Both the position numbers and the translations under genes were made by a program. A model generated the notes under the pieces. That model had not been told where the DNA came from, searched no databases, and saw only the letters and a program-made list of their open reading frames with translations. Below, one piece after another: positions 20,123 through 36,302 of a stretch of DNA of 39,862 nt (within the stretch, counting starts at the first letter, position 1; every line of letters starts with the position of its first letter). Source of the stretch: Dehalococcoidales bacterium (GTDB lineage: Bacteria > Chloroflexota > Dehalococcoidia > Dehalococcoidales > E44-bin46); assembly GCA_036481135.1 (NCBI GenBank), contig JAZGHN010000037.1, forward strand, positions 1 through 39,862, in the 5' to 3' direction.

Positions 20123-20728
20123 ATGCCACAGGATTCTTCTAAGAGTACCAAAAGCAGTTCCCACGATATCCCTCTCCTGGTCACGATAACCAAGGTTGTG
20201 GGAAGGTGTTATCGGGGATACAAGGAGGGAGACCAGTTTATCCTTAAGGATTTTACCCATGTTCCTGAAGATTTTTGCCAGGGAGCGGGTACAGTACTCT
20301 TCCCTATCTTTTATGCCCTAAGCTTTGGGGCAGAGTTTCCCTTTGAAGAGAATCCCCGTTCTCTTCATACCTACTGTCCTGATGCCGGGGCGGTAGAGTT
20401 CCTCACCGAGGTACTGACCGAATCAGGAGAAGTGGAAAGGAAGCCGAAGGTAGAAAACGCCAAGCCAAACCCGAAGAAACTGGTCATAAGCGTAGAGGAA
20501 GTAAAAGGGCATTGTGTCTATGATTACAAGGTGGGAGATTCCTTTGAAACAACCGGGCTCAGAACCCCCGCTGGTTTTTGCGGGGCTGCCTATAATGCTA
20601 TCTTCCCTGTTCTTTTTGCCTTAAATTTTGGGGCAAGATTCCCCTTTTCCGAAGATGGCATAAGCAATTCACGAATAACCTGTCCTGATGGGGCAAAGGT
20701 TAGATTTAAGGTAAGGAGGGTTGAATAA
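20123..20728 (+). CDS. Tandem-duplicated TIGR04076-like Cys-rich protein of unknown function
   Basis: Two ~85-aa internal repeats (GRCYRGYKEGDQF...FCQGAGTVLFPIFYALSFGAEFPF...CPDAGAVEF and GHCVYDYKVGDSF...FCGAAYNAIFPVLFALNFGARFPF...CPDGAKVRF). Confidence 0.6.
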   Translation: MPQDSSKSTKSSSHDIPLLVTITKVVGRCYRGYKEGDQFILKDFTHVPEDFCQGAGTVLFPIFYALSFGAEFPFEENPRSLHTYCPDAGAVEFLTEVLTESGEVERKPKVENAKPNPKKLVISVEEVKGHCVYDYKVGDSFETTGLRTPAGFCGAAYNAIFPVLFALNFGARFPFSEDGISNSRITCPDGAKVRFKVRRVE

Positions 20729-20729
20729 G

Positions 20730-21992
20730 ATGAAGAGGCGAGTAGTAGTTACCGGTGTGGGGGTCATTTCCCCCAATGGGGTTGGCAAAGAGGCACTCTG
20801 GGAAGGGATGGCTTCAGGCAAGTCGGGAGTAAGACGTGTCACCGATTTTGATGTATCTCAGTTCCATTCCCAGATAGCAGCCCAAGTAACTGATTTCGAC
20901 CCATTTGCCTTTGGTCTCACCCAAGAGGATGTGGAGAGAATGGACCGCTATGTACAGTTTGGCGTAGCAGCAACACAAACCGCTTTAGATGATGCTAAAC
21001 TCCTTCTAAATGGAGCCAATAGAGGCAGAATGGGCGTTTGCCTGGCCAATGCCATCTGCGGCACGAGATATATGGAAGAGGAATTCCTACGGGTAACCAA
21101 TGGAGGGAGCGACCCTATCGACCCCAGAAAGGCAAGACCCTACCTTTATGACGCCTCGATGTTTAACACCCCCTCCAGTGAGATAGCTGCTCGCCATAGA
21201 CTAAGAGGCATTTGCACCACCGTTTCCACCGGTTGTACCGCCGGTACCGATGCCGTGGGCTTTGCCTATGAAGCTGTCCAGATGGGAGAAGCGGATGTCA
21301 TGATTACCGGTGCTGCTGAGGCACCTCTTTGCCCTATCACCTTTGCCGCCTTTGACGTCATTAATGTTCTCTCTACCAGAAACGATGAGCCAGAGAAGGC
21401 ATCAAGGCCCTTTGACAAGGAAAGGGACGGATTTGTCCTTGCTGAAGGTTGCGGCATTTTGGTCCTGGAGGAATTGGGGCATGCTTTGAGCCGAGGCGCC
21501 CACATCTATTGTGAAATCACTGGTTTTGGCACCTGTTGTAATGCCTACCATATGACAGATTTGCCCCCCGATGGCGATAGCATGGCTGCCTGTATCAAGC
21601 TCGCCTTAAAAGATGCGGAGTTGCCCCACGAAACTATCGACTATATAAATGCTCATGGGAGTTCCACCAAGCAGAATGACATATTTGAGACAAACGGATA
21701 TAAGCAGGTTTTTGGCAAGAGAGCATATGATATTCCAGCAAGTTCCCTGAAATCTATGATTGGTCATCCCCTGGCTGCTGCCAATAGCATAGAGCTGGTA
21801 GCCGATGCCCTTGCTTTCGAACACGATGTTTTACCACCTACCATAAATCAAGAGGTGCCTGACCCTCTATGTGATTTGGACTATATTCCCAATAAGGCTC
21901 GGGAGAAACGAGTTGACCACGTCCTTAAAACCAGCAGCGGTTTCTCTGGTATTCATTCCTCTATGATATTGAGTAGGTGGAATTCAAGGTGA
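20730..21992 (+). CDS. Type II PKS-like ketosynthase alpha (KS-alpha)
   Basis: ATG at 20730 with an AGGAGGG SD. Active-site VSTGCTAGTDAVGFA, plus NAYHMTD and INAHGSSTKQND (Cys-His-His triad), and SLKSMIGHPL. These signatures match aromatic PKS KS-alpha better than FabF. Confidence 0.8.
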   Translation: MKRRVVVTGVGVISPNGVGKEALWEGMASGKSGVRRVTDFDVSQFHSQIAAQVTDFDPFAFGLTQEDVERMDRYVQFGVAATQTALDDAKLLLNGANRGRMGVCLANAICGTRYMEEEFLRVTNGGSDPIDPRKARPYLYDASMFNTPSSEIAARHRLRGICTTVSTGCTAGTDAVGFAYEAVQMGEADVMITGAAEAPLCPITFAAFDVINVLSTRNDEPEKASRPFDKERDGFVLAEGCGILVLEELGHALSRGAHIYCEITGFGTCCNAYHMTDLPPDGDSMAACIKLALKDAELPHETIDYINAHGSSTKQNDIFETNGYKQVFGKRAYDIPASSLKSMIGHPLAAANSIELVADALAFEHDVLPPTINQEVPDPLCDLDYIPNKAREKRVDHVLKTSSGFSGIHSSMILSRWNSR

Positions 21993-23200
21993 AGAAGGTA
22001 GCGCTTACCGGAATAGGCATCGTAGCCCCTCCCGGAATCGGGAAGGAAAGATTCTGGCAAGGCATTAAACAGGGAAAATCCTTCATTTCCCCTATTACCA
22101 GCTTTGACGCCTCGCTCTATCCCTCGCAAGTGGCCGGGCAGGTTGAGGACCTAGATACCAGCCACTTCTCCTTCCGCCTGTTAAAGAAGCTAGATAAATT
22201 CTCGGTGATGGCTTTAGTGGCTACTGAGCATGCCTTAAAAGACGCCCTTATAGATTTAGATAAGGAAGACCCCTATAACATAGGCATCTTTCTGGGAAAT
22301 GCCTTAGGGGGATGGCTCTATGCCGAGACAGAGCTGCGCGACCTTTACGTAGAGGGCAGACAAGGGGTAAGCCCGTATCTGGCTAGCGCCTGGTTTCCCG
22401 CTGCCCCCCAAGGTCAAATCTCTATCTATTATGGCATAAAGGGATACAGCAAGACGATGGTCGCAGACAAGGCGAGCGCTTTAATGGCCATTGGTTATGC
22501 TGCCAAGGTAGTGGGCAACAAAAAAATAGGCATTGCTCTGGCTGGGGGCACCGAGGCACCGGTTACTCCTTATGCCCTGCTTTGCTGTAGCACAGAGGGC
22601 TCACTGTCACAGGGTCCTTACCGACCTTTTGATAAAGAAAGAGACGGGCTTGTTGTTGGTGAAGGGACAGGACTGGTGGTCTTAGAGGAAATGGAATCTG
22701 CCCGGAAAAGGGGGGCAACCATTTACGGGTTGATTACCGGCTATACCACTTGCTGTGATGGTGCTTGCCGTATTGCGCCAGACCCAACTGGCAAGGGACT
22801 GGCTGAGGCGATAAAGACCACCTTAGATATGGCTGGTTATCAGCCCGGCGACATTGATTATATCTGTGCCGATGGGATGGGAACAAAATCGGGAGATGTT
22901 AGCGAGACAAAAGCAATAAAAGAAGTATTTGGCAGTTATGCCCAAAAGATACCGGTTAGCGCCCCAAAGTCCATGTTTGGTCATCTCATGGGGGCATCTA
23001 ATGCCGTTGATGTTATCACTACCCTCCTGGCCATGCAAGAAGGAATTATCCCCCCCACTATAAACTACCAAACCGAAGACCCTGAATGCGATTTAGATTA
23101 TGTGCCTAATAACAGCCGACCCAAAGAGATCAACCGAGCCCTTATTCTCGCCCGCGGTCGCGGAGGAATAAACGCCGTTCTGGCCATAGAAAGGAGCTAA
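21989..23200 (+). CDS. Ketosynthase beta / chain-length-factor-like subunit (catalytic Cys absent)
   Basis: GTG at 21989 overlaps the KS-alpha TGA (GTGA coupling); the alternative GTG at 21977 is the ORF-track start. Thiolase fold, but the active-site position reads MVADKASALMAIGYA and both His motifs are degenerate (CCDGACR, CADGMGTKSGD). Confidence 0.75.
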   Translation: MKKVALTGIGIVAPPGIGKERFWQGIKQGKSFISPITSFDASLYPSQVAGQVEDLDTSHFSFRLLKKLDKFSVMALVATEHALKDALIDLDKEDPYNIGIFLGNALGGWLYAETELRDLYVEGRQGVSPYLASAWFPAAPQGQISIYYGIKGYSKTMVADKASALMAIGYAAKVVGNKKIGIALAGGTEAPVTPYALLCCSTEGSLSQGPYRPFDKERDGLVVGEGTGLVVLEEMESARKRGATIYGLITGYTTCCDGACRIAPDPTGKGLAEAIKTTLDMAGYQPGDIDYICADGMGTKSGDVSETKAIKEVFGSYAQKIPVSAPKSMFGHLMGASNAVDVITTLLAMQEGIIPPTINYQTEDPECDLDYVPNNSRPKEINRALILARGRGGINAVLAIERS

Positions 23201-23202
23201 GA

Positions 23203-23439
23203 TTGGCAGAGGTAGACGAAACGATAAAAGGAATGCTTATGAAGTCCTTTGATATGAAGCCCGAAGAGCTCACCATGGAGGCGAATCTAAAGAAAGACCT
23301 TGAGATGGACTCGCTGGAGATGGTGGAATTGGAGGTGGCTTTAGAGGAGGAGTTCAAGATTGACATTAAGGATGGCGAGATTACCAATAAGAATTGTGTG
23401 GGTGATGTGATCAAAGTTGTACAGGATAAGCTCAAGTAA
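23203..23439 (+). CDS. Acyl carrier protein
   Basis: 78 aa with a DSL phosphopantetheine attachment motif (LEMDSLEMVEL). AGGAG SD, TTG start. Confidence 0.85.
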   Translation: MAEVDETIKGMLMKSFDMKPEELTMEANLKKDLEMDSLEMVELEVALEEEFKIDIKDGEITNKNCVGDVIKVVQDKLK

Positions 23440-24245
23440 TGAGGATTATAGACCTGAGTCTCCCTATTGATGATAGTGTTTCCGAGACTCACCCGGTAGA
23501 AATAGAGAGATGGGAGCACAGGAGTGGTGGAGACCGACTTGGCAAGCTATGGGCTAGGTCTCAGGGGATAAAGGGACGCATGAAACATATCACCGGGAAG
23601 GAGCGGATCACGCGCGATTGCTTTAAGGACGGGCTCTTTTTGTCTCTAGAATGGGTTAGAGCCACGGTGCATAGCGGCACCCATCTTGACGCCCCATATC
23701 ATTACGGGCCGTACTCCGAAGGAAAACCAGCAAAGAAAATAGAGGATATCCCACTGGAGTGGTGCTATGGCGATGGTGTGGTTCTGGATTGCTCTGATAA
23801 AGGCGCGGGAGAGGTTATCACCGAAGCAGACATAAAAAAGGCACTGGGCAAAATAAAGTATAAGATAAAGCCCTTTGATATCGTCCTTATTCACACCGGT
23901 GCCGATAAGCTCTGGGGGACAAAGAAGTATTTTTCTCATTATGTCGCCCTAAGCAGAGATGCGTTAGCCTACATTGTGAACTTCGAGGTAAAGGTTATCG
24001 GGGTTGATATCTTCAGCCTAGACCGTCCCCTTCCGGCTATGGTGAGGGACTTCTTAAAGACCAAGGACAATAGTTATCTCTGGCCTGTCCATTTCTATGG
24101 CAGGGAAAAAGAATATTGTCATATAGAAAGGCTGGCCAATCTGGATAAGATTCCCCAGCCCTACGGCTTTAAGGTGGCTTGCTTCCCCGTAAAGATAAAA
24201 GGGGCTGGTGCCGCCTGGGTAAGGGCGGTGGCTATTATTGAATAA
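23439..24245 (+). CDS. Cyclase-family protein (kynurenine-formamidase/putative cyclase fold)
   Basis: HSGTHLDAPYHY metal-binding motif. 268 aa. TAATG overlap with the ACP stop. Confidence 0.75.
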   Translation: MRIIDLSLPIDDSVSETHPVEIERWEHRSGGDRLGKLWARSQGIKGRMKHITGKERITRDCFKDGLFLSLEWVRATVHSGTHLDAPYHYGPYSEGKPAKKIEDIPLEWCYGDGVVLDCSDKGAGEVITEADIKKALGKIKYKIKPFDIVLIHTGADKLWGTKKYFSHYVALSRDALAYIVNFEVKVIGVDIFSLDRPLPAMVRDFLKTKDNSYLWPVHFYGREKEYCHIERLANLDKIPQPYGFKVACFPVKIKGAGAAWVRAVAIIE

Positions 24246-24258
24246 AAAGGAGTGGAAA

Positions 24259-24702
24259 ATGGGACAGACGGTAAACTCTATCTTGATTAAGGCACCCTAT
24301 GATGCGGTGTTTGACATCTCCAATGACATTGAAAGGTGGACAGAACTATTCGGCGGGGAGTATACGGAGGCGAAGATATTAAAACGGGAGGGGAATAAAC
24401 TTACCTTCAAGCTAACCGACGATGAAGGCAATTCTTGGCAATCCTTCCGTCTCTTATTTAAAGACTACTACTTTGCCTATGCCCAGAAGCTGGAGCCAAC
24501 ATTCCCCTTCGATTATATGAAGATTATCTGGCTTTATACCCCTGTGCCCGAGGGGATACTTATGACCTGGATTCAATTCTTTTCCATGGCGGAGGGGGCA
24601 AAATTCAACGATGAGCAGGTTGAGGGTTTCATCAATAAACATTCCACGGATAACCTGAAGATATTTAAAGAGGTGATAGAGAAAGAGGCGAAAAAGAGGT
24701 GA
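24259..24702 (+). CDS. SRPBCC-superfamily polyketide cyclase/aromatase-like protein
   Basis: ATG at 24259 after an AAGGAG SD (the ORF-track TTG at 24238 is less likely). ~147 aa with N-terminus VNSILIKAPYDAVFDISNDIERW, typical of TcmN/START-like cyclases. Confidence 0.65.
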   Translation: MGQTVNSILIKAPYDAVFDISNDIERWTELFGGEYTEAKILKREGNKLTFKLTDDEGNSWQSFRLLFKDYYFAYAQKLEPTFPFDYMKIIWLYTPVPEGILMTWIQFFSMAEGAKFNDEQVEGFINKHSTDNLKIFKEVIEKEAKKR

Positions 24703-24705
24703 GAG

Positions 24706-25479
24706 ATGAGTGAATTGAGAGGCAAAACCGCCATTGTTACCGGGGCAAGTAGAGGTATCGGGAGGTCGATTGGGGAAGCACTGGCCAAGGAAGGGATGAA
24801 CTTAGCCCTCGCAGCACGAGGTAAAGAGGTGCTGGAGAAGACGGCAAAGGAGCTGTCTGAGCAATATAAGGTGAAGATATTGCCTGTGCCATGCGATGTT
24901 TCCCAACAAAAAGACCTGGAGAATCTGGTAACAGCCGCCATTAAAGAATTCAAGAAGATAGACGCCTTAATCAACAGCGCCGGGGTAAGCAGCCAACACC
25001 CCTTCCAGGACCAACCAGTGGAGGACATCCCCAGGCTTATGTATACCAACTATTTTGGCCCAGTGATGCTTACCCGCTTGATTATCAATCACTTTATCGA
25101 AAATAAAGGCGGAGCCATTATAAATATCACCTCCGGCTCTACCCTGGTAGACCCTCCACCGAGAAACTTCATTGTTTATACCTCTCTTAAACAGGCATTA
25201 AAAGCCTTTGGCAAGGGACTTTTCTGGGAGGTGCGGGATTTTGGCATAAAGGTGACCTCAATCATGCCAGGGGTAACCGATACCGCCCTAACCGGCGGGC
25301 TTAAAGACGTCTCTGTGGACAAGTCTCGTCTCATGCAAACCGGGGTGATAGAGGATGCGGTTAAGTTCGCCCTTACCGTGCCAGCCAACGTCTGCCCCCT
25401 GGAGATTTCAGTTATCAACCAGCGCACCCCCTGGACAAGACCGATAATTCCATATAAACAGGCACATCCGAAAGAATGA
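24706..25479 (+). CDS. Short-chain dehydrogenase/reductase (ketoreductase)
   Basis: TGASRGIG cofactor motif, NSAG, and catalytic Y-x3-K (YTSLKQALK). Confidence 0.85.
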   Translation: MSELRGKTAIVTGASRGIGRSIGEALAKEGMNLALAARGKEVLEKTAKELSEQYKVKILPVPCDVSQQKDLENLVTAAIKEFKKIDALINSAGVSSQHPFQDQPVEDIPRLMYTNYFGPVMLTRLIINHFIENKGGAIINITSGSTLVDPPPRNFIVYTSLKQALKAFGKGLFWEVRDFGIKVTSIMPGVTDTALTGGLKDVSVDKSRLMQTGVIEDAVKFALTVPANVCPLEISVINQRTPWTRPIIPYKQAHPKE

Positions 25480-26384
25480 TGTTTGACGCACATGCTCATT
25501 GGCTACCAAGAGAAATTATTGATAACGCCCACTTTTTCTCCCCTGCCTGGGGTGATATCAAGCGGCAACTGGCACTTATGGATAAATTCCACATTGAGAG
25601 AGCACTCCTCCTCTACCCCACCAGCGATGCCTACCAACAGATGGGCGGCCTGCAGAAAGTAGCCAGGATTTACAACAACAGCATAGCCGAGGTGGTGAAA
25701 CGATATCCGGAGAGATTTATCGGAGCAGCCATCCTGCCCGTAGATGAACCAGAGGCGATGGTCACAGAATTTGACCGTGCCACCGAGGAATTGGGCTTCA
25801 AAGCCATCTCTCTGGCTACAAGCTTTGAGGGCGTCTATCTGGACGATGATAGATTTCATCCGCTCTACGAAAGGGCAGAGGCATCAAATACACCCCTCTT
25901 TGTCCACCCCCAAACCATAAATCCCATAGGTTTTGAACAAGTGAAGGACCCGTTACTTACCCCAGTGATTGAATTTGTCTTTGATACCACCATGTGCATC
26001 GGCAAATTGATGACCGCCGGGACACTGAGAAGATTCCCCAATCTGAAATTTGTCTTTGCCCACTTCGGCGGGGTGATGCCCTTTATCAAGGAGAGATTTG
26101 ATACCGTATATAAGATGCTGAGAGGGAGAAACATAGTGAAAGACCTCTTTGCTCTGCCCAGCGACTATCTGAAGCAGATATATGTGGATACCAGCGGGGC
26201 TACCTCTCCTTCTACCCTGATGAGCACCCTGGAAATGGTGGGGGCGGAACATACTCTATGGGGCAGCGATTACCCCAGCAATCCTGATGTCTCAGCATCA
26301 ATCGCCGCCATAGAGGGGCTGGACATCCCGTCAGAGGATAAGAAAAGGATACTGGGCGCGAATATAGAGCGAGTATTGGGTTAA
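25476..26384 (+). CDS. Amidohydrolase_2 family protein (ACMSD-type metal-dependent decarboxylase/hydrolase)
   Basis: N-terminal DAHAHWLP (HxH) motif, FVHP, AHFGG, and the C-terminal WGSDYP motif typical of this family. ATGA overlap with the SDR stop. Confidence 0.75.
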   Translation: MMFDAHAHWLPREIIDNAHFFSPAWGDIKRQLALMDKFHIERALLLYPTSDAYQQMGGLQKVARIYNNSIAEVVKRYPERFIGAAILPVDEPEAMVTEFDRATEELGFKAISLATSFEGVYLDDDRFHPLYERAEASNTPLFVHPQTINPIGFEQVKDPLLTPVIEFVFDTTMCIGKLMTAGTLRRFPNLKFVFAHFGGVMPFIKERFDTVYKMLRGRNIVKDLFALPSDYLKQIYVDTSGATSPSTLMSTLEMVGAEHTLWGSDYPSNPDVSASIAAIEGLDIPSEDKKRILGANIERVLG

Positions 26385-26444: not shown

Positions 26445-26520
26445 AGGAGTGTAGCTCAGTTGGGAGAGCAACGGTCTCCAAAACCGTAGGTCGGGGGTTC
26501 GAGTCCTCCCACTCCTGCCA
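26445..26520 (+). tRNA. tRNA-Trp(CCA)
   Basis: Acceptor AGGAGTG/CACTCCT, anticodon loop CTCCAAA, T-loop TTCGAGT, encoded CCA. Confidence 0.9.
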
Positions 26521-26525
26521 GACAA

Positions 26526-26613
26526 GCCGGGGTGGCGGAAGCAGGTAGACGCGCTAGCTTGAGGGGTTAGTGCCCGCAAGGGCGTGGGAGTTCAAATCTC
26601 CCCTCCGGCACCA
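26526..26613 (+). tRNA. tRNA-Leu(GAG)
   Basis: Acceptor GCCGGGG/CTCCGGC, anticodon loop TTGAGGG, long variable arm, T-loop TTCAAAT, encoded CCA. Confidence 0.85.
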
Positions 26614-26618
26614 AAAGG

Positions 26619-26693
<75 letters not shown>

Positions 26694-26794: not shown

Positions 26795-26823
26795 TTGACA
26801 CAAAAGAGGGTGTGGGTTATACT
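26795..26823 (+). promoter_or_regulatory. Near-consensus sigma70 promoter, TTGACA-N17-TATACT, upstream of pylSc
   Basis: TTGACA at 26795-26800 and TATACT at 26818-26823. Same hexamers and spacing as the promoter at 16958. Confidence 0.45.
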
Positions 26824-26915: not shown

Positions 26916-27764
26916 TTGTCCGCAATGTCCATCACACTAACAGAAACCCAAAAACAACGTCTGCGAGAATTGGATGCTGATACCCGCTTGGCGGAGAAGG
27001 TATTCAGCGATGTCCAAGAGCGGGACGCAAGCTTCAAGATGATGGAGAAGAGTTTGATTGAGGGGGAAAAACAGCACTTGCGAAACCTCCGCCGCCATCA
27101 TCGCCGCCCCGCAGTTTGTCAAATAGAGAACACCCTGGTAAATAAACTTACCGAAGAAGGTTTTGTCCAGGTTATTACCCCCCTAATCATAACCAAGGCA
27201 TTTTTAGAGAAGATGACTATCACCGCTAGCAATCCCCTGATAAATCAGGTTTTTTGGCTCAGTAAGAATAAGTGTCTGCGACCAATGCTGGCGCCAAATC
27301 TCTATTATCTTCTGAGGCGGCTTGTCCGCTTATGGAAAAAACCCATCCGTATTTTTGAAGTAGGCCCATGCTTTCGCAAAGACACTCAAGGGAGTGAGCA
27401 CCTAAATGAATTTACCATGCTGAACCTTGTTGAGCTGGGCTTACCCCCGGAAAGCAGGCAGGCACGGTTAAAAGAGTTAGCCTCCCTCCTCATGGGAGTT
27501 ATCGGTATAGATAAGTACCAGTTGGTTTCCAAGCCATGCGAAGTCTATGGCGAAACAGTGGACATCGCGACCGATACCGGTATCGAGCTTGGTTCGGCAG
27601 CAATGGGTCCCCATCCCTTGGATGATGCCTGGAGAATAGTTGACCCGTGGGTAGGGTTAGGAATGGGTTTGGAGAGGCTGGTAATGGCGAAACAGGGGTA
27701 TCAAAATATTCAGAGAGCAGGACGCAGCTTGATATACCTTGATGGGGCAAGACTGAACATCTAG
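26916..27764 (+). CDS. pylSc: Pyrrolysyl-tRNA synthetase, catalytic C-terminal polypeptide (PylSc)
   Basis: Very close to the Desulfitobacterium PylSc sequence I recall: GFVQVITP.IITK, QVFWL..NKCLRPMLAPNLY, IRIFEVGPCFRKDTQGSEHLNEFTMLNL (class II motif 2), IVDPWVGLGMGLERL, YLDGARLNI. The start is TTG 26916 or ATG 26925. The stop is TAG. Confidence 0.9.
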   Translation: MSAMSITLTETQKQRLRELDADTRLAEKVFSDVQERDASFKMMEKSLIEGEKQHLRNLRRHHRRPAVCQIENTLVNKLTEEGFVQVITPLIITKAFLEKMTITASNPLINQVFWLSKNKCLRPMLAPNLYYLLRRLVRLWKKPIRIFEVGPCFRKDTQGSEHLNEFTMLNLVELGLPPESRQARLKELASLLMGVIGIDKYQLVSKPCEVYGETVDIATDTGIELGSAAMGPHPLDDAWRIVDPWVGLGMGLERLVMAKQGYQNIQRAGRSLIYLDGARLNI

Positions 27765-27894: not shown

Positions 27895-28545
27895 ATGGCA
27901 GGACAGAAAGAGATACTAGAAAAGGCAAAGCAATCAATCATTGACTTCGACAAAGGTAAGGCGGAAGCAACTGCCAAGGAGGGTTTGTCCAGCGGGATTG
28001 GCCCAGCTACAATAATAAATGAGGGATTTGTTCCTGGAATAACTCAGGTGGGTAACCTTTTTGACCGGGGGCAAATATTCCTGCCGGAATTGATGCTGGC
28101 GTCTGAAGCAATGAAGACAGGGTCAGCAATATGTATAGCAGCACTCCCTGCATCAGAGGTTCAGGCAACGAAGAAAGTAGTAATCGGGACCGTGGAAGGA
28201 GATGTCCACGACATCGGAAAATCGATTGTTGTCTCCTTCTTATTAGCCAATGGCTTTGAGGTCTATGATATAGGTAGAGATGTGCCTATTGAGAAATTCG
28301 TGGAGAAGACTCGTGAGGTAAATGCGGATGTGGTTGGGGCAAGCGCTTTATTGACCACCACTATGGAGGGGCAGAGGACGGTAATAGAAGAGCTAAAGAA
28401 AGCTGGGTTGCGGGATAAGGTCAAAGTAATCATAGGTGGAGCGCCAGTCAGCCAACCATGGGCCGACCGCATAGGAGCAGATGCCTATGCTGAAAACGCC
28501 GTAGACGGAGTAAACAAGATAAAGAAATTAACCGGCTTGGCATAA
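27895..28545 (+). CDS. Cobalamin-binding corrinoid protein (MtmC/MtbC/MttC-like)
   Basis: 216 aa with an N-terminal helical cap plus a B12-binding Rossmann domain carrying the D-x-H-x2-G motif (GDVHDIGKSIV), SALLTTT, and GGA. Confidence 0.85.
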   Translation: MAGQKEILEKAKQSIIDFDKGKAEATAKEGLSSGIGPATIINEGFVPGITQVGNLFDRGQIFLPELMLASEAMKTGSAICIAALPASEVQATKKVVIGTVEGDVHDIGKSIVVSFLLANGFEVYDIGRDVPIEKFVEKTREVNADVVGASALLTTTMEGQRTVIEELKKAGLRDKVKVIIGGAPVSQPWADRIGADAYAENAVDGVNKIKKLTGLA

Positions 28546-28564: not shown

Positions 28565-29686
28565 GTGATGAGAGATAATACCTGTTTTGGTATAGAGGGA
28601 ATATTAGCCAAAGCACTGTGCGAGGAGTCTCTAACCAAAGGGGAGGTCCTTTCTTTACTCAGCTTAAAGCAAGCTGACGACATTAAGAAGCTCTTTGAGG
28701 TAGCACGGAGACTAAGAGACCGATATTTTGGCAATAGCATTTTTCTTTACGGGTTCCTCTACTTCTCCACCTGGTGCCGTAATAACTGTGCCTTCTGTTA
28801 TTATCGCGCCTCTAATAGATTGTGCCAGCGATATCGGAAAACTGAGCGCCAGGTTATGGAAGCGGCTCTTGAGACGGCAGACTCCGGGGTTCACCTGCTT
28901 GATTTAACTATGGGAGAAGACCCCTTTTATTACCAAGGGAAAGATGGCTTTGAGCCCCTACTACACCTGATAAAAGAGATTAAACGGCAAACATCTTTAC
29001 CGATAATGATTTCCCCCGGAGCTCTCCCCGACGAAGTTTTAGCGAAGCTATTTGAGACAGGGGCGGAGTGGTACGCCTGCTATCAGGAAACCCACAATAA
29101 AAAACTCTACCACCAGCTCCGGTTGAATCAGAGCTACAGTGATAGGCTCAGGAAGAAGTATAAGGCGGCTCAGTTAGGTGTACTCATTGAGGAAGGGATA
29201 TTAGCTGGGGTGGGGGAATCGTTAGAAGATGTAGCCGACTCTATGGAAGAGATGCGGAGGATGGGGGCTCACCAGGTGCGTGTTATGAATTTTATTCCTC
29301 AAAAGGGAACCCCCATGCATGATTTTCCTCCACCCCCTAAAATGCGTGAACTGCTAATTATTGCTGTTTTGCGTCTACTGTTTCCTCGTCGGTTGATACC
29401 TGCTTCTCTTGATGTATATGGTATTGAGGGGCTCAAGGGAAAGCTAGAAGCTGGAGCTAATGTAGTTACTTCCTTAATTCTCCCCCATTCGGATATGGTA
29501 GGTGTAGCCCAAAGTACCCTGGATATCGCCGAGGGTCACCGGACAGTAGAGGGAATAACCCCGATACTCAATGAATTGGGGCTAACCAAGGCCAGACTTG
29601 ATGATTATATCTCGTGGATTGAGAAGAAAAGAAAGAGCTATATAGATGTAGATAGGTATCGGCTTAGAGAAAAGGTATTGTTGTGA
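28565..29686 (+). CDS. pylB: 3-methylornithine synthase (radical SAM)
   Basis: CRNNCAFCYY (CX3CX2C) in FLYFSTWCRNNCAFC, then LDLTMGEDPFYY, LPIMISPG, YQETH, RLIPASLD and GANVVTS. These are collinear with the Methanosarcina PylB I recall. Confidence 0.9.
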   Translation: MMRDNTCFGIEGILAKALCEESLTKGEVLSLLSLKQADDIKKLFEVARRLRDRYFGNSIFLYGFLYFSTWCRNNCAFCYYRASNRLCQRYRKTERQVMEAALETADSGVHLLDLTMGEDPFYYQGKDGFEPLLHLIKEIKRQTSLPIMISPGALPDEVLAKLFETGAEWYACYQETHNKKLYHQLRLNQSYSDRLRKKYKAAQLGVLIEEGILAGVGESLEDVADSMEEMRRMGAHQVRVMNFIPQKGTPMHDFPPPPKMRELLIIAVLRLLFPRRLIPASLDVYGIEGLKGKLEAGANVVTSLILPHSDMVGVAQSTLDIAEGHRTVEGITPILNELGLTKARLDDYISWIEKKRKSYIDVDRYRLREKVLL

Positions 29687-30858
29687 GAGTGGCAATTGTT
29701 GGGGGGAAATTGCAGGGGGTGGAAGCAGCCTTCCTTGCTCATGAAGCAGGGTGGGAAGTAGTTCTTATCGATAAGAAATCGAGTGTGCCGGCATCAGGAT
29801 TATGCCGGTCTTGTTATCAATGCGACGTTGTTAAAGATGTTTCATCCTTGCGTCGAATTATAGAGAAGGTTGATTTGATTATCCCGGCGCTTGAGGATGT
29901 TACCGCCCTTAGAGCTCTACAGAAATGCGCGGCTGATGCCAATGTCCCTTTAGCTTATGGTACCGGAGCCTATTTTATTACCCATTCCAAAAAGCGTTCC
30001 AATCGCCTCTTTGAAAAGTTGGGTGTTCCCCAGCCACAAAGTTGGCCCCAATGCGGGCTGCCACTGATGGCAAAACTATCAACTTCAAGCGGGAGTCAAG
30101 GGGTATCTAAGATATCTACTGAGAAGGAACTTGATGATTTTATCAAGGGTGCGGGTTCAGAGCTGGGGCGCTGGATTTTACAGGAATATGTGGAGGGCCC
30201 CTCCTATTCCATCGAAGTTCTGGGCTCGGAGGGACATTACACAGCTCTCCAGGTCACAGAGCTGGAAATGGATGAGCTCTACGACTGCCATCGGGTTCTT
30301 GCTCCTGCCCAGATTGCGGAGTCACTGGACAGGCAGATTAAAGAAATGGCGCTCATCATTGCTCGGAGTCTCCATTTGAAGGGGATTATGGATGTTGAGG
30401 TCATCCTTGATAAGGATGTTCCCAAGGTGTTAGAGATTGATGCCAGACTTCCCAGCCAGACTCCTACCGCGGTCTATAAGTCCACGGGAATAAACATGCT
30501 GGAGCTATTGCGGGACATATTTGTCACCGGTACCACGCCGGTAATCCCTAGAGCAAAAGCCTCACGGGGGGTTGTTTATGAGCATGTTAGGTTTTCCCCA
30601 AACGGTTTAGAATTTCCGGGGGAACATATTATGGGAGAAGCTGACTCCCTTGAGGTCGTCCCCGGTTTCTTTGGGGCTGATATAGCGCTGACAAACTTCA
30701 ATTTGTCATCTTTTTCCTGGGTGGCAACGCTGATTATTACCGGGGAGAGCCGAGAACGAGCATGGCTTAAACGCGAGCAAGTTATAGAAAATATCAAAGG
30801 TTTACTGAAGGCTTCCAAAACCAGGTTTACTGGCATACCTTCATTGTCCAGAGGATAA
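29683..30858 (+). CDS. pylC: 3-methylornithine--L-lysine ligase (ATP-grasp)
   Basis: MRVAIVGGKLQGVEA N-terminus with ATP-grasp core (QEYVEGPSYSIEV, MDVEVI, VLEIDARLPSQTP). Position between pylB and pylD. GTGA overlap with pylB. Confidence 0.85.
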   Translation: MRVAIVGGKLQGVEAAFLAHEAGWEVVLIDKKSSVPASGLCRSCYQCDVVKDVSSLRRIIEKVDLIIPALEDVTALRALQKCAADANVPLAYGTGAYFITHSKKRSNRLFEKLGVPQPQSWPQCGLPLMAKLSTSSGSQGVSKISTEKELDDFIKGAGSELGRWILQEYVEGPSYSIEVLGSEGHYTALQVTELEMDELYDCHRVLAPAQIAESLDRQIKEMALIIARSLHLKGIMDVEVILDKDVPKVLEIDARLPSQTPTAVYKSTGINMLELLRDIFVTGTTPVIPRAKASRGVVYEHVRFSPNGLEFPGEHIMGEADSLEVVPGFFGADIALTNFNLSSFSWVATLIITGESRERAWLKREQVIENIKGLLKASKTRFTGIPSLSRG

Positions 30859-30860
30859 AT

Positions 30861-31682
30861 ATGGCAAGGTGTCTCACCAAAGAAGACGTGATAGAGGTAG
30901 TGGAGAAACTTCCTGCCTATGATGCTGAATTGGTTCGAAAAACAGGTTTGTCACTCAAAGATATTGCCACTCGCTCTATGGGGGTCAGCGAGGAGAAGGC
31001 CAAGGCTGCCATTGCTTCCCATAAAGTAGCGGTGGTGCCTATAACCGCGGGGGAGGGAGTCGTTGAATACTTTAGCGAAGCGGTTACCGGCATCTTAAAT
31101 TATCTTGGAGCCGATGTTTTTAAGACCAGCAGTACCGATATAGCTGGAGTAGCAGAGGGGGTTGAGAAAGGCGCAGACATTGTTTTCTTTGCTGATGATA
31201 ATCGCTTTATCGCCCTGAACCTTGCCTTGAGGAAGGTTATCGATAATGCTGAGTCCACAGCAAAAGGGTATGCTACCGCACTGGAAGCCATGGCTGGAGG
31301 CTTAACCCAGCGCAAGGTGCTGGTGATTGGGGGAACGGGGCGGGTAGGCTGGAATGCGGTTTTGTCTCTAAAACACAAGGGGGCAAAGGTAGCAGCTATC
31401 GACCTTAACCAAGATAGAATGGAGTCGCTGGGGAAGGAGCATAAAATTATAGTGGAAAGGAACCTGGAGGAGGCGCTCGGCCGATATACACTATTTTTTG
31501 ATGCTTCAACTTCAGCCAATATCATACAGGCAAAACATATTAAGCCAGAAACGCTTATCGCTGCTCCTGGAATGCCGCTGGGGTTAACTGAAGAGGCTCG
31601 CTCTCTGGTTAAAGAGCGCCTGATTCAGGATGTGCTGGAGATTGGTGTGGCCACCATGTTCATTCAGACCAGTTGTATTTAG
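30861..31682 (+). CDS. pylD: Pyrrolysine synthase (3-methylornithyl-N6-lysine dehydrogenase)
   Basis: 273 aa with a Rossmann motif VLVIGGTGRVG. Position after pylC. Ends with the tandem stops TAG-TGA, 27 nt before pylT. Confidence 0.85.
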   Translation: MARCLTKEDVIEVVEKLPAYDAELVRKTGLSLKDIATRSMGVSEEKAKAAIASHKVAVVPITAGEGVVEYFSEAVTGILNYLGADVFKTSSTDIAGVAEGVEKGADIVFFADDNRFIALNLALRKVIDNAESTAKGYATALEAMAGGLTQRKVLVIGGTGRVGWNAVLSLKHKGAKVAAIDLNQDRMESLGKEHKIIVERNLEEALGRYTLFFDASTSANIIQAKHIKPETLIAAPGMPLGLTEEARSLVKERLIQDVLEIGVATMFIQTSCI

Positions 31683-31709
31683 TGAGGGAGTAGCCTAAAA
31701 TATTAGACA

Positions 31710-31781
31710 GGGGGGTTGATCGGAAAGATCACACAGACTCTAAATTTGTGTAGCCGGGTGTAACTCCCGGACTCCCCGCCA
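31710..31781 (+). tRNA. pylT: tRNA-Pyl (CUA anticodon), amber suppressor
   Basis: Hand fold of GGGGGGT-T-GATC-GGAAA-GATC-A-CACAGA-CTCTAAA-TTTGTG-TAG-CCGGG-TGTAACT-CCCGG-ACTCCCC-G-CCA. One nt separates the acceptor and D stems. 5-nt D-loop without GG, 6-bp anticodon stem, 3-nt variable loop, non-TPsiC T-loop, G73 discriminator. Anticodon CTA at 31740-31742. Confidence 0.9.
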
Positions 31782-31811
31782 TAAGTTGATCGAGATAACA
31801 GGGGAAAAGCA

Positions 31812-32165
31812 TTGACAGATAAGACACACAAAAGAATCTACTGGCAACAGGTCCCCCTCTTTCAAATGATAGATAAGATCAAACTGTGGCCTTCTCGAAA
31901 GGGAGTCCTCCACGGGATCAGAACCTTTGAAACCAAGGGGGGGTCTTGTGCTTATCTGGTCACCCACTGTAATGAGCAGATAACGATACGCAATTCTAAG
32001 AACTGTCGTGCCGCCCGCTGGCTTCGCAATAAATGGTCTGTTAAGCCATGTGAGAAGTGTAAAACCCCTGAATGGAAGCTCGAAAAATATTCAGAGACAG
32101 TTTTCAAGCGTGGCCGGATTCCTGCTTATTTACTGGAGCAGACGCAACAAGCGGAGTCTAAGTAA
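31812..32165 (+). CDS. pylSn: Pyrrolysyl-tRNA synthetase N-terminal tRNA-binding polypeptide (PylSn)
   Basis: KLWPSRKGVLHGIR and IRNSKNCRAARWLRNKWSVKPCEKCK align by eye with the Methanosarcina PylRS N-domain ([39 protein letters not shown]). TTG start at 31812; an alternative ATG at 31866 is possible. Confidence 0.8.
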   Translation: MTDKTHKRIYWQQVPLFQMIDKIKLWPSRKGVLHGIRTFETKGGSCAYLVTHCNEQITIRNSKNCRAARWLRNKWSVKPCEKCKTPEWKLEKYSETVFKRGRIPAYLLEQTQQAESK

Positions 32166-32270
32166 GGTTGCCGGTGTTCACTCTCGGCTGATGAGTTGAT
32201 TCTCAGGCGATAGAGTAAGCTAAAATAGCCAATACCAATAATCACCAATAATCAATAAAGGAGGGATAAA

Positions 32271-33068
32271 GTGATAGTTCTTGGTGAGTTGATAAATTCA
32301 ACGCGAAAATCGGTGCAGAAGGCTCTTGCGGAGAAGGACGAGGCTACTATTCGCCGTCTGGCTCGAGAGCAGCTGGAGGCTGGAGCTGATATTATTGATG
32401 TGAATACTGCTACCAGCATGGAGAAGGAAATTGACGACATGAAGTGGGTGATTGGGCTTGTTTATGATGAGGTAGGAGAAGACGTACGTATAGCCATCGA
32501 TACCCCTAATCCCAAGGCTATGGCGGCAGGACTGAAGCTTTGCAAAGCCCGCCCTCTTCTTAATTCTGTTAACAACGACCCGAGACAGAAAGAGCTGATT
32601 GATATTGCCAAAGGCTCCGAAGGTGATATTGTGGGCCTCCCCATGGGAGGGAAAACGGCAATGCCTAAGACAGTAGAGGAGCGCCTTGAGGAGACCGACA
32701 TACTCGTCTGCACTCTTGAGCAGGCTGGTATAGATTTAAATCGGCTGTATGTAGACACTATAGTGATGACTATCGGCAGTAATCAGGAACAGGGTCGTGC
32801 CGTTATCAATGCTACACGCGAAGTCAAGAGACGCTTCGGCGACAAGGGAGTGAAGACATCGGTAGGGTTATCAAATGTCTCCTTTGGATTACCTAAGCGC
32901 ACCCTGCTTAATCAGGCGTTTTTGGCTATGCTTCTTGAGGCGGGACTGGATATGGCGGTCATCGACCCCAGGGATGAGGGGATGATGGACATACTACGAG
33001 CCTCAGAAGCTATAATAGGGACTGACCAGAACTGTCTTAAATACATGCGGCATGTGAGGAGCAAGTAA
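32271..33068 (+). CDS. Pterin-binding methyltransferase (methylcorrinoid:tetrahydrofolate methyltransferase, MtgA/MtrH-like)
   Basis: 265 aa with GTG start after an AAGGAGGG SD. TIM-barrel pterin-binding features (GADIIDVN, AIDTPNP, LLNSV, SVGLSNVSFGLP). Confidence 0.7.
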   Translation: MIVLGELINSTRKSVQKALAEKDEATIRRLAREQLEAGADIIDVNTATSMEKEIDDMKWVIGLVYDEVGEDVRIAIDTPNPKAMAAGLKLCKARPLLNSVNNDPRQKELIDIAKGSEGDIVGLPMGGKTAMPKTVEERLEETDILVCTLEQAGIDLNRLYVDTIVMTIGSNQEQGRAVINATREVKRRFGDKGVKTSVGLSNVSFGLPKRTLLNQAFLAMLLEAGLDMAVIDPRDEGMMDILRASEAIIGTDQNCLKYMRHVRSK

Positions 33069-33093: not shown

Positions 33094-33843
33094 ATGTTTC
33101 AGATAGTACCTGAGACTGAGTTCTCAAACTTTAAGGTGCCTCCACATGAGGTGTGGCGTTATTTAGGCTATCCTGACTCGTCCCGAGCACGCCCGGAGGT
33201 TCACGAAATCTTTAAGCGGGTGATGGAGATAGGGCCGTCCCTTCTGGCACCAGCAGCGTGTTACGATATTTTCCCCATAAAGAACATAACCTCTTCCTCT
33301 GTGGAGGTGGATGGCGTTTCCTTTGACAGCGGGGACCTGGCACTGCGCCAGCGTGAAGCAAAAGAGCTTGCCCTTTTTATAGTAACCGCCGGACGGCGCA
33401 TTGGAGAGGAGGCAGAAAAGCTTATCCAGAGCGGGGATGCTGTTCTGGGATATATACTGGATATGTTTGCCTCGGCGGCTGTGGATACCCTAGCCTACAA
33501 GGTGAGGGAGATAATCCAGGACGACATCAAATCCAAGGGCTATCAGGCAATAAATCACGGCATCTGTATCGGCAAGAAGTGCCCAGCATATAGAGATTGC
33601 GCCGGGGTAGTAGTCTACTGGTGGAGTCCCGGTTATGGAGATTGGACCGCGCTGGAGAATAAGAAGATATTCTCCCTTGTCGATGCAAACCAAATTGGAG
33701 TCCGGGTAAAAGACAGCGGCATGATGACCCCGCGGAAGTCCTATGCCTGTGCCATGCCCATTGGCCCTGAGGGAGAGAAGCCGACAGAGAAGTGCATTGA
33801 GGGGGAAAGGGAGTGGATACAACGAGGCATTAAGTCTAGATAA
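33094..33843 (+). CDS. MetH activation-domain-like protein (vitamin B12-dependent methionine synthase activation region family)
   Basis: 249 aa. By-eye resemblance to standalone Met_synt_B12-like proteins found in corrinoid methyltransferase operons. Cys-rich segment CIGKKCPAYRDC. The assignment rests on family recall and context. Confidence 0.5.
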   Translation: MFQIVPETEFSNFKVPPHEVWRYLGYPDSSRARPEVHEIFKRVMEIGPSLLAPAACYDIFPIKNITSSSVEVDGVSFDSGDLALRQREAKELALFIVTAGRRIGEEAEKLIQSGDAVLGYILDMFASAAVDTLAYKVREIIQDDIKSKGYQAINHGICIGKKCPAYRDCAGVVVYWWSPGYGDWTALENKKIFSLVDANQIGVRVKDSGMMTPRKSYACAMPIGPEGEKPTEKCIEGEREWIQRGIKSR

Positions 33844-33907: not shown

Positions 33908-35863
33908 ATGTCAAAAGGTACAAATAAGCAATCGAAGGTCATCTTCCAGCCATCGGGGCGGAGGGGCTATGTAAACGACGGAGAGACCATCAAGCAGGCA
34001 GCACAGGAGCTGGGTGTAGGTATAGAAGGCATATGTGGCGAAAAGGCTACCTGTGGCAAGTGCAAGGTCAGGATAGAGGAAGGGGTTTTCGCCAAATATA
34101 AAGTTGAGTCCCGGATGGATAACCTCTCTCCGCCGAATAAGGCAGAGAAGAAACAACTCACCCCCCAGCAGCAGCGCGATGGCTACCGGCTTGCCTGTCA
34201 GGCTCGCATCCATGGTGATGTTGCGGTCTTCGTTCCTGAGGAGAGTCGCCTAGGTAAACAGATCATACGCAAAACGGCTCGAGAGATAGCCATCGAGTTA
34301 AAGCCATCTGTACGGAAATACTATGTAGAAATAACCCCGCCCACTCTGGATGACAACCTAGGCTGCTGGGAGCGTCTGCAGGCTGAACTCGACAAAAGCT
34401 TTGGCCTGAATGGTCTTGCTATCGACTATCAGGTGCTCCGTGTCTTACAGAGCGTGATGCGCCGGGATAATTGGAAGGTAACCGTATCGGTATGGATGAA
34501 CGGAGAGGTGGTCAATGTGGAGCCAGGCCCTGTAGAAAAGAGTTACGGTCTGGCGGTAGATATAGGCACCACCACAGTAGCTGCTTATCTCTGTGATCTG
34601 GGCACTGGCGAGATCGTAGCCACCGATTCCATGATGAATCCACAGGTGGCTTACGGCGAAGATGTGATGTCCCGCATCAGCTACTCTATGACCCGTAAAG
34701 ACGGCCTAGCGAGCATGAACCGGGCTATCATAAAGAGCCTCAACCAACTGGCGGGGCGAGCCGCTGCTGCCGCGGGTATCAAGCGGAGTGCCATCATTGA
34801 CATGGCCGTCGTCGGCAATACCTGCATGCACCACATATTCCTCAACGTTGACCCACAGTATATCGGCAGGTCACCGTTTGCTCCAGCCCTGCACCACTCT
34901 GCCGATATTAAAGCACGTGACCTGGGGCTTAAGATATCACCGGGGGCTTACGTTCACGTTCTCCCTATTGAGGCTGGTTTCGTGGGCGCTGACAATGTAG
35001 GGGTACTCATCGCTGAGGAACCATACAATCAGGACGATATGCTGCTGGTAATCGACATCGGCACCAATGGCGAGCTAGTGTTGGGCAACCGAGATAAGCT
35101 CATGTCCTCTTCCTGCGCCACCGGTCCCGCCTTTGAGGGGGCTGAGATAAAATTTGGAATGCGTGCTGCCCCGGGGTCTATCGAAAAGATAAAGATAGAC
35201 CCGGATACCAAGGAGGTGCGCTTCAAGGTTATCGGCAAGGCAGATTGGAATACGGATTTGGAAGATATGGGGGCCAAAGGTATTTGTGGGTCGGGGATAA
35301 TTGATGCCGTAGCCCAATTGTTCGTGGCGGGTATTATAGACCGAACCGGCCGATTTAACACTGATTTGAGCACGCCCCGCTTGCGAGTCAGTGAGAACAG
35401 GCCAGAGTTCGTCATCGCCTGGGCAAAGGAGACCTCCGTTAATCAGGATATCGTGCTCTCCCAGCAGGATGTAAGAAATATACAGCTGGCCAAAGGGGCT
35501 ATGTATACCGGGGCTAAGATAATGATGCGCCATTTGGGTGTGAAGAAATTGGATAAGATTATCCTGGCTGGAGCCTTCGGAAGCTACATTGATAAGGAAT
35601 CAGCGGCGGTCATAGGGCTTTTCCCAGACTGCGCTCGAGAGAACATCTACTCTGTAGGTAATGCCGCTGGCGATGGGGCACGGATAGCTCTCCTCAATGT
35701 GAACAAGAGGGCAGAGGCTGACGAAATGGCGAGGAAGGTGGAATACGTAGAATTAACCGTGGAGCCAGATTTCCAGAAGGTTTTCAGCCAAGCCATGTGG
35801 TTCCCCCACATGAAGGATAGTTTCCCCCACCTAAAGCACCTACTGCCTCAGAGCAAAGACTGA
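33908..35863 (+). CDS. RACE-type reductive activator of corrinoid enzymes (N-terminal 2Fe-2S ferredoxin plus ASKHA ATPase domain)
   Basis: 651 aa. Plant-type ferredoxin Cys pattern (CGEKATCGKCKV...ACQARI). ASKHA phosphate motifs (GLAVDIGTTTV, VIDIGTNGE, GPAFEGA). Confidence 0.8.
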   Translation: MSKGTNKQSKVIFQPSGRRGYVNDGETIKQAAQELGVGIEGICGEKATCGKCKVRIEEGVFAKYKVESRMDNLSPPNKAEKKQLTPQQQRDGYRLACQARIHGDVAVFVPEESRLGKQIIRKTAREIAIELKPSVRKYYVEITPPTLDDNLGCWERLQAELDKSFGLNGLAIDYQVLRVLQSVMRRDNWKVTVSVWMNGEVVNVEPGPVEKSYGLAVDIGTTTVAAYLCDLGTGEIVATDSMMNPQVAYGEDVMSRISYSMTRKDGLASMNRAIIKSLNQLAGRAAAAAGIKRSAIIDMAVVGNTCMHHIFLNVDPQYIGRSPFAPALHHSADIKARDLGLKISPGAYVHVLPIEAGFVGADNVGVLIAEEPYNQDDMLLVIDIGTNGELVLGNRDKLMSSSCATGPAFEGAEIKFGMRAAPGSIEKIKIDPDTKEVRFKVIGKADWNTDLEDMGAKGICGSGIIDAVAQLFVAGIIDRTGRFNTDLSTPRLRVSENRPEFVIAWAKETSVNQDIVLSQQDVRNIQLAKGAMYTGAKIMMRHLGVKKLDKIILAGAFGSYIDKESAAVIGLFPDCARENIYSVGNAAGDGARIALLNVNKRAEADEMARKVEYVELTVEPDFQKVFSQAMWFPHMKDSFPHLKHLLPQSKD

Positions 35864-36050: not shown

Positions 36051-36136
36051 GCCGAAGTGGCGGAATGGCAGACGCGCTACGTTCAGGGCGTAGTGTCCGT
36101 AAGGGCGTGTGAGTTCAAATCTCACCTTCGGCACCA
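36051..36136 (+). tRNA. tRNA-Leu(CAG)
   Basis: Acceptor GCCGAAG/CTTCGGC, anticodon loop TTCAGGG, long variable arm, T-loop TTCAAAT, encoded CCA. Confidence 0.85.
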
Positions 36137-36144
36137 TTATTAAG

Positions 36145-36221
36145 GCGCTTGTAGCTCAGTTGGACAGAGCGCAGCCCTGCGAAGGCTGAGGCCGTGGGTT
36201 CAAGCCCCACCAAGCGCACCA
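36145..36221 (+). tRNA. tRNA-Arg(GCG)
   Basis: Acceptor GCGCTTG/CAAGCGC, anticodon stem CAGCC/GGCTG, loop CTGCGAA (G34 C35 G36), T-loop TTCAAGC, encoded CCA. Confidence 0.8.
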
Positions 36222-36225
36222 CTGC

Positions 36226-36302
36226 GGGCGGTTAGCTCAGATGGTTAGAGCACCTGCTTTACACGCAGGGGGTCAGAGGTTCAAGTCCTCTACCGCCCAC
36301 CA
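36226..36302 (+). tRNA. tRNA-Val(TAC)
   Basis: Acceptor GGGCGGT/ACCGCCC, anticodon loop TTTACAC, T-loop TTCAAGT, encoded CCA. Confidence 0.9.

Follow-up and report, generated by a model that had tools for sequence, protein, structure and literature searches.

A Predicted tRNA-Pyl Gene between pylD and pylSn in an Uncultured Dehalococcoidales Bacterium

A 39,862-nt stretch of DNA from a Dehalococcoidales bacterium (hereafter the window) carries a set of pyl protein genes, and a first-pass annotation made from sequence alone proposed that the 72 nt between pylD and pylSn are an unannotated pylT gene with the structural peculiarities of tRNA-Pyl, in a position that departs from the canonical pylT-first order. 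This raises the questions of whether the sequence (31710–31781, plus strand: GGGGGGTTGATCGGAAAGATCACACAGACTCTAAATTTGTGTAGCCGGGTGTAACTCCCGGACTCCCCGCCA) is a genuine and functional tRNA gene, how unusual its place in the cluster is, and which gene its product would serve. As judged from sequence, it is a genuine bacterial pylT of the standard kind, predicted to encode an amber-suppressor tRNA that inserts pyrrolysine (Pyl), and we put at about 93% the probability that it is a functional gene for the UAG-decoding tRNA-Pyl of this uncultured member of the Chloroflexota. Biologically it is nothing new: it is a textbook bacterial tRNA-Pyl in a lineage already known to encode Pyl, and Pyl systems had already been described for Chloroflexi in a 2017 study (PMC5424206).

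Organization of the pyl Cluster

The order on one strand is pylSc, a corrinoid protein gene, pylB, pylC, pylD, pylT, and pylSn, and three further genes follow on that strand:

26916–27764, plus strand: pylSc, PylRS catalytic subunit (TIGR02367, 341.6 bits against a cut-off of 178); ends in TAG
27895–28545, plus strand: MtbC-like methyltransferase-cognate corrinoid protein (TIGR02370, 241 bits against a cut-off of 215)
28565–29686, plus strand: pylB, methylornithine synthase (TIGR03910, 487.7 bits against a cut-off of 348)
29683–30858, plus strand: pylC, 3-methylornithine--L-lysine ligase (TIGR03909, 425.1 bits against a cut-off of 248)
30861–31682, plus strand: pylD, 3-methylornithyl-N6-L-lysine dehydrogenase (TIGR03911, 259.1 bits against a cut-off of 150)
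31710–31781, plus strand: predicted pylT, tRNA-Pyl (ARAGORN, cloverleaf fold, tRNA-Pyl covariance models, and covariation in 42 homologues)
31812–32165, plus strand: pylSn, tRNA-binding small PylRS subunit, 117 aa (TIGR03912, 119.7 bits against a cut-off of 51)
32271–33068, plus strand: pterin-binding methyltransferase of the methyl-THF:corrinoid type (NF005719, 253.7 bits, just below the cut-off of 259; Pfam Pterin_bind)
33094–33843, plus strand: conserved protein that weakly matches the methionine-synthase activation domain (PF02965, 25.7 bits against a cut-off of 25)
33908–35863, plus strand: RACo/RamA-like reductive activator of corrinoid proteins (Pfam Fer2, RACo_linker, Raco_middle, and RACo_C_ter)

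The five pyl protein ORFs are full length and share one strand, all within 5 kb, and each scores above its NCBIfam equivalog cut-off. PylSc matches the structures of Desulfitobacterium hafniense PylSc (3dsq and 2zni) with an e value of 8e-95, and PylSn matches the N-terminal tRNA-binding domain of Methanosarcina mazei PylRS (5ud5) with an e value of 6e-10. The corrinoid protein carries the Pfam domains B12-binding and B12-binding_2, and the RACo/RamA-like protein matches NF040756 with an e value of 6e-150, which is below that model's cut-off. The stop codon of pylD is a TAG with a TGA directly after it (31680–31685), and pylSn starts with a TTG that has a GGGG ribosome-binding site on its 5' side; this TTG and the GGGG are both kept in relatives. 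The gaps reported in the first-pass annotation are exact, with 27 nt from the pylD stop (31682) to the tRNA and 30 nt from the tRNA to the TTG of pylSn (31812). Many related loci, spread over several phyla, likewise have a corrinoid protein gene between pylSc and pylB, and a counterpart of the conserved protein at 33094–33843 is found at the same position in the related loci L002, L003, and L021.

Two tRNA clusters flank the pyl and corrinoid cassette of about 9 kb, one of them Trp-Leu(GAG)-Gly on the upstream side (26445–26693) and the other Leu(CAG)-Arg-Val on the downstream side (36051–36302), and the cassette may mark an island-like insertion site. A direct-repeat search for island boundaries returned only the two bracketing tRNA-Leu isoacceptor genes, which share 84% identity over 70 nt. 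L001, L005, and L021 have the upstream tRNA-Trp/Leu(/Gly) cluster in common with the window. Further upstream, 20721–26384 encodes a type II PKS/FAS-like set with two KS, a small PP-binding ORF, a cyclase, a polyketide-cyclase-like protein, an SDR, and an amidohydrolase, and mannosylglycerate (mpgS/mpgP) and inositol-phosphate genes lie still farther upstream on the minus strand.

Detection of pylT

Two of the kinds of check suggested for the candidate, a tRNA gene finder and covariance models, were run. ARAGORN, applied to the whole window, called nine tRNA genes in all, one of which is a tRNA-Pyl (cta) at exactly 31710–31781 on the plus strand, in agreement with the proposed coordinates. The general Rfam tRNA model RF00005 behaved differently: cmscan gave no match at 31710–31781 either at gathering thresholds in the whole window or at an e value of up to 10 in a 301-nt slice (31600–31900), and the same model detects the other eight tRNAs of the window at 44–73 bits. 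Such a miss is expected from the non-canonical core of pylT. Taking a poor covariance score as grounds for rejection, as had been proposed, would through RF00005 produce a false negative, and we therefore built models specific to tRNA-Pyl.

With the first tRNA-Pyl covariance model, 31710–31781 scored 97.3 bits. Because circularity had to be avoided, a further model, R2, was restricted to other lineages. It comprises 23 tRNA-Pyl sequences from Firmicutes, Actinomycetota, Deltaproteobacteria/Desulfobacterales, Omnitrophota, and other groups together with one archaeon, includes no Dehalococcoidales sequence, and has just one member (L061) from a locus with the order pylD-pylT-pylSn (hereafter D-T-Sn). 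In a scan of the whole window with filters off, R2 scored 94.4 bits at 31710–31781 (e value 1.7e-21), and its next best matches were the eight ordinary tRNAs, none above 21.9 bits. The covariance-model check thus fails with the general model and succeeds with the specific ones, and since the latter give 94–97 bits, the miss by RF00005 reflects a limit of the general model and is not counter-evidence.

Cloverleaf Structure and Identity Elements

The minimum free energy (MFE) fold of the sequence is a cloverleaf of −30 kcal/mol, compared with −20.9 ± 3.1 kcal/mol for shuffled sequences (z = −2.9). The elements of the tRNA as read from the sequence, all on the plus strand, are as follows:

31710–31716 with 31771–31777: acceptor stem, 7 bp with one G·U pair (G5·U68)
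31717: position 8, a single U between the acceptor and D stems
31718–31721 with 31727–31730: D stem, 4 bp, GAUC/GAUC
31722–31726: D-loop, GGAAA, 5 nt
31731: equivalent of position 26, A
31732–31737 with 31745–31750: anticodon stem, 6 bp
31738–31744: anticodon loop, CUCUAAA, 7 nt with U33 and A37; anticodon CUA at 31740–31742
31751–31753: variable loop, UAG, 3 nt
31754–31758 with 31766–31770: T stem, 5 bp
31759–31765: T-loop, UGUAACU (U54 G55 U56 A57 A58), lacking T54-Psi55-C56
31778: discriminator, G73
31779–31781: 3' end, encoded CCA

The description given in the first-pass annotation holds at nearly every element: the acceptor stem with its one G:U pair, the single nucleotide between the acceptor and D stems, the loop CUCUAAA with anticodon CUA, the T-loop TGTAACT without T-Psi-C, and G73 with an encoded CCA are all read at the positions above, and the 6-bp anticodon stem and 3-nt variable loop are additionally supported by covariation and by the alignment of homologues. 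The one correction concerns the D-loop, which has the stated 5 nt but does not lack a GG dinucleotide, as GGAAA opens with a literal GG; what appears to be missing is the canonical G18G19 placement and context of a normal D-loop of 8–11 nt. The MFE fold itself contains an extra A:U pair (equivalent to A26-U44) that would give a 7-bp anticodon stem and a 2-nt variable loop. This version was rejected, as the seventh pair shows no covariation; because that pair is often mismatched in homologues, a 6-bp stem with a 3-nt variable loop is the right description.

The known hallmarks of tRNA-Pyl are a single base joining the acceptor and D stems, a D-loop of 5 nt, an anticodon stem of 6 bp, a variable loop of 3 nt, and the absence of G18G19 and of T-Psi-C (Herring et al. 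2007, PMC1851642). The features above correspond to them, those of the D-loop by its size. In D. hafniense, the major identity elements for PylRS are G73 and G1:C72, G10:C25, A11:U24, and G8 contribute moderately, and the set further includes an essential A58, a U54·A58 contact, and a purine at position 57 (Herring et al. 2007, PMC1851642). Read from its sequence, the window pylT has G73, G1:C72, G10:C25, A11:U24, U54/A58, and the purine at 57. The sole D. hafniense identity element that it lacks is at position 8, which is U in the window and G in D. hafniense, and a G8U change in the D. hafniense tRNA has merely a 4.6-fold effect (PMC1851642). The resemblance to D. hafniense tRNA-Pyl, known in complex with PylSc (PDB 2ZNI; PMC1851642), extends beyond these positions, as the two share the compact architecture with G1:C72 and G73, the G5·U68 wobble, the D stem G10-A11-U12-C13, U54 and A58 in the T-loop, a G·U pair in the anticodon stem, and the encoded CCA, and both organisms have a split PylRS (PylSc and PylSn).

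The Methanosarcina pylTSBCD cassette and the window share a tRNA-Pyl with anticodon CUA, PylRS, and PylBCD, and the tRNA hallmarks are common to both. The archaeal (Methanosarcina) cassette differs in that it begins with pylT and has one fused gene for PylRS. Our alignment includes a single archaeal tRNA-Pyl, that of Ca. Hydrothermarchaeum (L071), which shares 68% identity with the window's.

Covariation and Conservation

Homologues were collected by a PylD profile scan of one genome per species (GTDB representatives), which yielded 80 pylD loci; the best PylD relatives are Dehalococcoidales/Dehalococcoidia MAGs, and ARAGORN found a tRNA-Pyl in most of the 80 loci. The resulting alignment contains 42 distinct tRNA-Pyl sequences that are 68–96% identical to that of the window. 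Standard pairs occupy 99.7% of its 924 stem cells, and compensatory changes, in which both sides of a pair differ, occur in 12 of the 22 pairs (79 cells), including five of the six pairs of the anticodon stem. None of 500 shuffles reached the observed covariation values, and when the 3' partner was slid by 1–3 columns, pairing dropped to 30–61% of cells.

The Dehalococcoidales MAG L001 has a tRNA 100% identical to that of the window and a PylD that is just 82% identical, which indicates purifying selection on the tRNA. In an alignment of the pylD-pylT-pylSn junction from five relatives the tRNA stands out as an island of near-identity amid indel-rich spacers, and the T-stem changes in relatives are compensatory (G52:C62 to A:U). 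Structure, the R2 score of 94.4 bits, covariation, and the flanking pyl genes together bear out the proposed identity as pylT.

Several of the collected loci carry variants of their own. A U73 in place of G73 is found in the tRNA-Pyl of L050 (7956–8028, minus strand) and L061 (3791–3862), whose hosts are a Phycisphaerales MAG and Ca. Acetocimmeria pyornia; a U73 class of tRNA-Pyl that includes a Phycisphaeraceae bacterium has been described (PMC9630628). The uncultured bacterium of L040 has two identical pylT copies 2.5 kb apart (1340–1411 and 3848–3919) upstream of a RACo-pylSc-pylBCD-pylSn cluster.

Gene Order across Bacteria

Published bacterial orders are given as pylTScBCDSn or pylSnScBCD (Borrel et al. 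2014, PMC3941956), compared with Sc-corrinoid-B-C-D-T-Sn in the window, and a 2024 review describes the bacterial configuration as variable but compact (PMC11467909). We sorted the 80 species-representative pylD loci using ARAGORN, model R1, and tblastn with the window proteins, in a sample biased in favour of the query's relatives:

pylD-pylT-pylSn, as in the window: 26 of 80 loci
pylD-pylT with pylSn elsewhere: 14 of 80 loci (Thermoleophilia/Actinomycetes, Syntrophomonadaceae, Paradesulfitobacterium)
pylT-pylSn with pylT not immediately 3' of pylD: 3 of 80 loci
classical pylT-pylSc: 10 of 80 loci
pylT elsewhere, mostly pylT-RACo-pylSc: 12 of 80 loci (Sporomusa and relatives)
no same-strand pylT scored in the available DNA: 15 of 80 loci (many of them on short contigs; in L050 a pylT is found on the opposite strand)

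The placement of pylT after pylD and before pylSn was thus correctly noted in the first-pass annotation; its reading as a departure worth remark was not, since pylT lies directly after pylD in half of the loci and the full D-T-Sn order, found in 26, is not unusual. Hosts with this order include Dehalococcoidales, Aminicenantes, Aerophobetes, Thermodesulfobacteriota/Syntrophobacterales, Spirochaetota, and others, so that the arrangement is widespread despite the biased sample. In the literature text we found no explicit prior statement of the D-T-Sn order, which may appear in a figure. The point is a modest one: pylD-pylT(-pylSn) is a major bacterial arrangement, at 40 of 80 species-level loci, that the reviews consulted do not make explicit.

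In the pylSc-cor-pylBCD-pylT-pylSn clusters among L001–L042, which come from MAGs of uncultured Dehalococcoidales, Aminicenantes, Aerophobetes, Thermodesulfobacteriota, and Spirochaetota, the gene order and the short spacers are the same as in the window, and the tRNA-Pyl sequences are 82–100% identical to the window's. The clusters differ in what follows: many have mtbB directly 3' of pylSn, whereas in the window, L002, L003, L005, and L021 the pterin-binding methyltransferase gene comes next. In a second Dehalococcoidia/Chloroflexota group, with PylD 50–55% identical to that of the window, a gap of about 30 nt that contains no pylT separates pylD from pylSn (L009 5003–5035, L014 5641–5670); in L017, pylT is at 13566–13637, after mtbB and a corrinoid gene.

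Proposed Function and Alternative Readings

A scan for promoters and terminators around pylT found nothing above chance as a promoter near the gene and no terminator-like site after pylD or pylT. The best sigma-70-like match is upstream of the cluster:

26795–26823, plus strand: candidate operon promoter, TTGACA-17-TATACT, 11 of 12 positions (consensus match only)

As the 27-nt gap cannot accommodate a promoter and the surrounding sequence offers no convincing promoter or terminator, pylT is likely co-transcribed with the cluster. RNase P would then cut the 5' end of the tRNA, and trimming at the 3' end would stop at the encoded CCA. PylSn is predicted to bind the tRNA and PylSc to attach to it the pyrrolysine that PylBCD produce. 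Once charged, the tRNA would decode an in-frame UAG in the mRNA of a methylamine methyltransferase, most likely mtbB as in close relatives, a gene that would have to lie outside the window. The methyl group would reach the pterin-binding methyltransferase by way of the corrinoid protein of the cluster, and the RACo-like protein would reactivate the corrinoid.

A target of this kind was sought in the available sequence. Searches by tblastn with MtbB from L004 and an MttB-family protein from L018 found no MtbB/MttB homologue in the 39.9-kb window, and a six-frame scan of the window for TAG-interrupted ORFs gave no credible case, only three antisense artefacts. There is no methylamine methyltransferase among the called genes of L081, a stretch that ends about 0.9 kb short of the 3' end of a 47-kb metagenome contig (JAZHCI010819009.1, 47,195 nt) on which the window sequence lies. 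Since neither the window nor the called genes of L081 hold one, no Pyl-using gene is seen for this organism; the conserved in-frame-TAG gene (mtmB, mtbB, or mttB) that forms part of a complete Pyl-decoding trait is absent from both. The window pylSn is instead followed, after a 105-nt spacer (32166–32270), by the pterin-binding methyltransferase gene. In many D-T-Sn loci an mtbB homologue stands immediately 3' of pylSn (L004, L006, L007, L012, others within L018–L025, and beyond). That of L004, a Dehalococcoidales-like MAG, is directly 3' of pylSn at 10481–11899 and has 472 codons with one in-frame TAG (...KADGL-TAG-VGIGDA...); among the relatives, L004 is the only one in which the TAG was read. 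The D-T-Sn-MeTr-RACo layout of the window recurs in L002, whose mtbB is retained about 6.5 kb downstream of pylT, which makes an unlinked methyltransferase gene elsewhere in the genome the simplest explanation for the window. TAG is used as the stop codon of seven of the 35 window genes, including pylSc (27762–27764) and pylD, so it is not avoided as a stop, and the spacing of back-up stops after the TAG-terminated genes of the window is no different from that after genes ending in TAA or TGA.

Two alternatives deny the sequence a working role in Pyl insertion. One would have it be a chance set of tRNA-like hairpins or an amber-suppressor tRNA that does not carry pyrrolysine, for which the missing match to the general Rfam model could be cited; we assign this a negligible probability, as a model built independently of the lineage scores it at 94.4 bits, 41 other distinct tRNA-Pyl sequences, all beside pyl genes, are 68–96% identical to it, and its compact core (one base for positions 8/9, 5-nt D-loop, 6-bp anticodon stem, 3-nt variable loop) is foreign to canonical suppressors. 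The covariation and the R2 score effectively refute it. The other would make the cassette a relic that is intact but unused, its linked mtbB lost and pylT non-functional or decaying. The window's lack of an mtbB/mttB homologue and of a TAG-interrupted ORF fits such a history, as does the pterin-binding methyltransferase gene in the place that mtbB holds in relatives, and a degraded second pylT in the related MAG L002 indicates that decay occurs in the group. Against it, however, all stem positions of the window tRNA pair, its identity elements are intact, the five pyl ORFs are full length and above their equivalog cut-offs, the tRNA is identical in L001 at a PylD identity of 82%, and L002 retains its distant mtbB with the same layout. 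Given that every gene, and the tRNA as well, is both intact and conserved, we consider a relic very unlikely.

The remaining alternatives accept a functional tRNA and differ over its expression or use. Transcription of pylT alone from a promoter inside the 3' end of pylD, as opposed to processing from a polycistronic transcript, appears unlikely. In its favour, a weak sigma-70-like match (TTGATG-16-TATCAT, 9 of 12 positions) is present at 31498–31525, about 185 nt upstream of the tRNA. Such matches are, however, near chance (20 found in the region against 11.5 ± 3.3 expected), and the sigma-70 consensus may not fit Dehalococcoidia promoters at all. Moreover, a promoter would not fit between pylD and pylT in most D-T-Sn loci, where the spacer is 12–35 nt, and there is no terminator-like site 3' of pylD or pylT. 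Also improbable is a scheme in which, with the linked mtbB lost and TAG a common stop, excision of a tRNA from the middle of the operon would cut the mRNA and so set the ratio of pylBCD to pylSn, the pterin-binding methyltransferase, and RACo. A further improbable reading is that Pyl is placed in proteins other than methylamine methyltransferases, or that UAG is decoded ambiguously. We retain as the preferred reading a functional pylT, probably co-transcribed with the cluster.

Annotation of Related Loci

The practical value of the locus is one of annotation. In all eight public contigs with this locus pylSn is absent from the called genes, so that the pterin-binding methyltransferase is listed as the next gene after pylD. 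As RF00005 misses pylT, ARAGORN misses variants, and pylSn goes uncalled, the Pyl capacity of Dehalococcoidales MAGs can be under-reported, and TAG-containing methyltransferase genes can likewise be mis-split. Copies of pylT between pylD and pylSn that ARAGORN did not call are found in the Dehalococcoidales loci L002 (10829–10900) and L003 (3234–3305). The degraded second pylT of L002 (19687–19751, minus strand) scores 51.6 bits, has deletions in both arms of the acceptor stem, and adjoins an inverted pylC, a corrinoid protein gene, and mtbB, which points to a rearrangement or duplication of the pyl cluster there.
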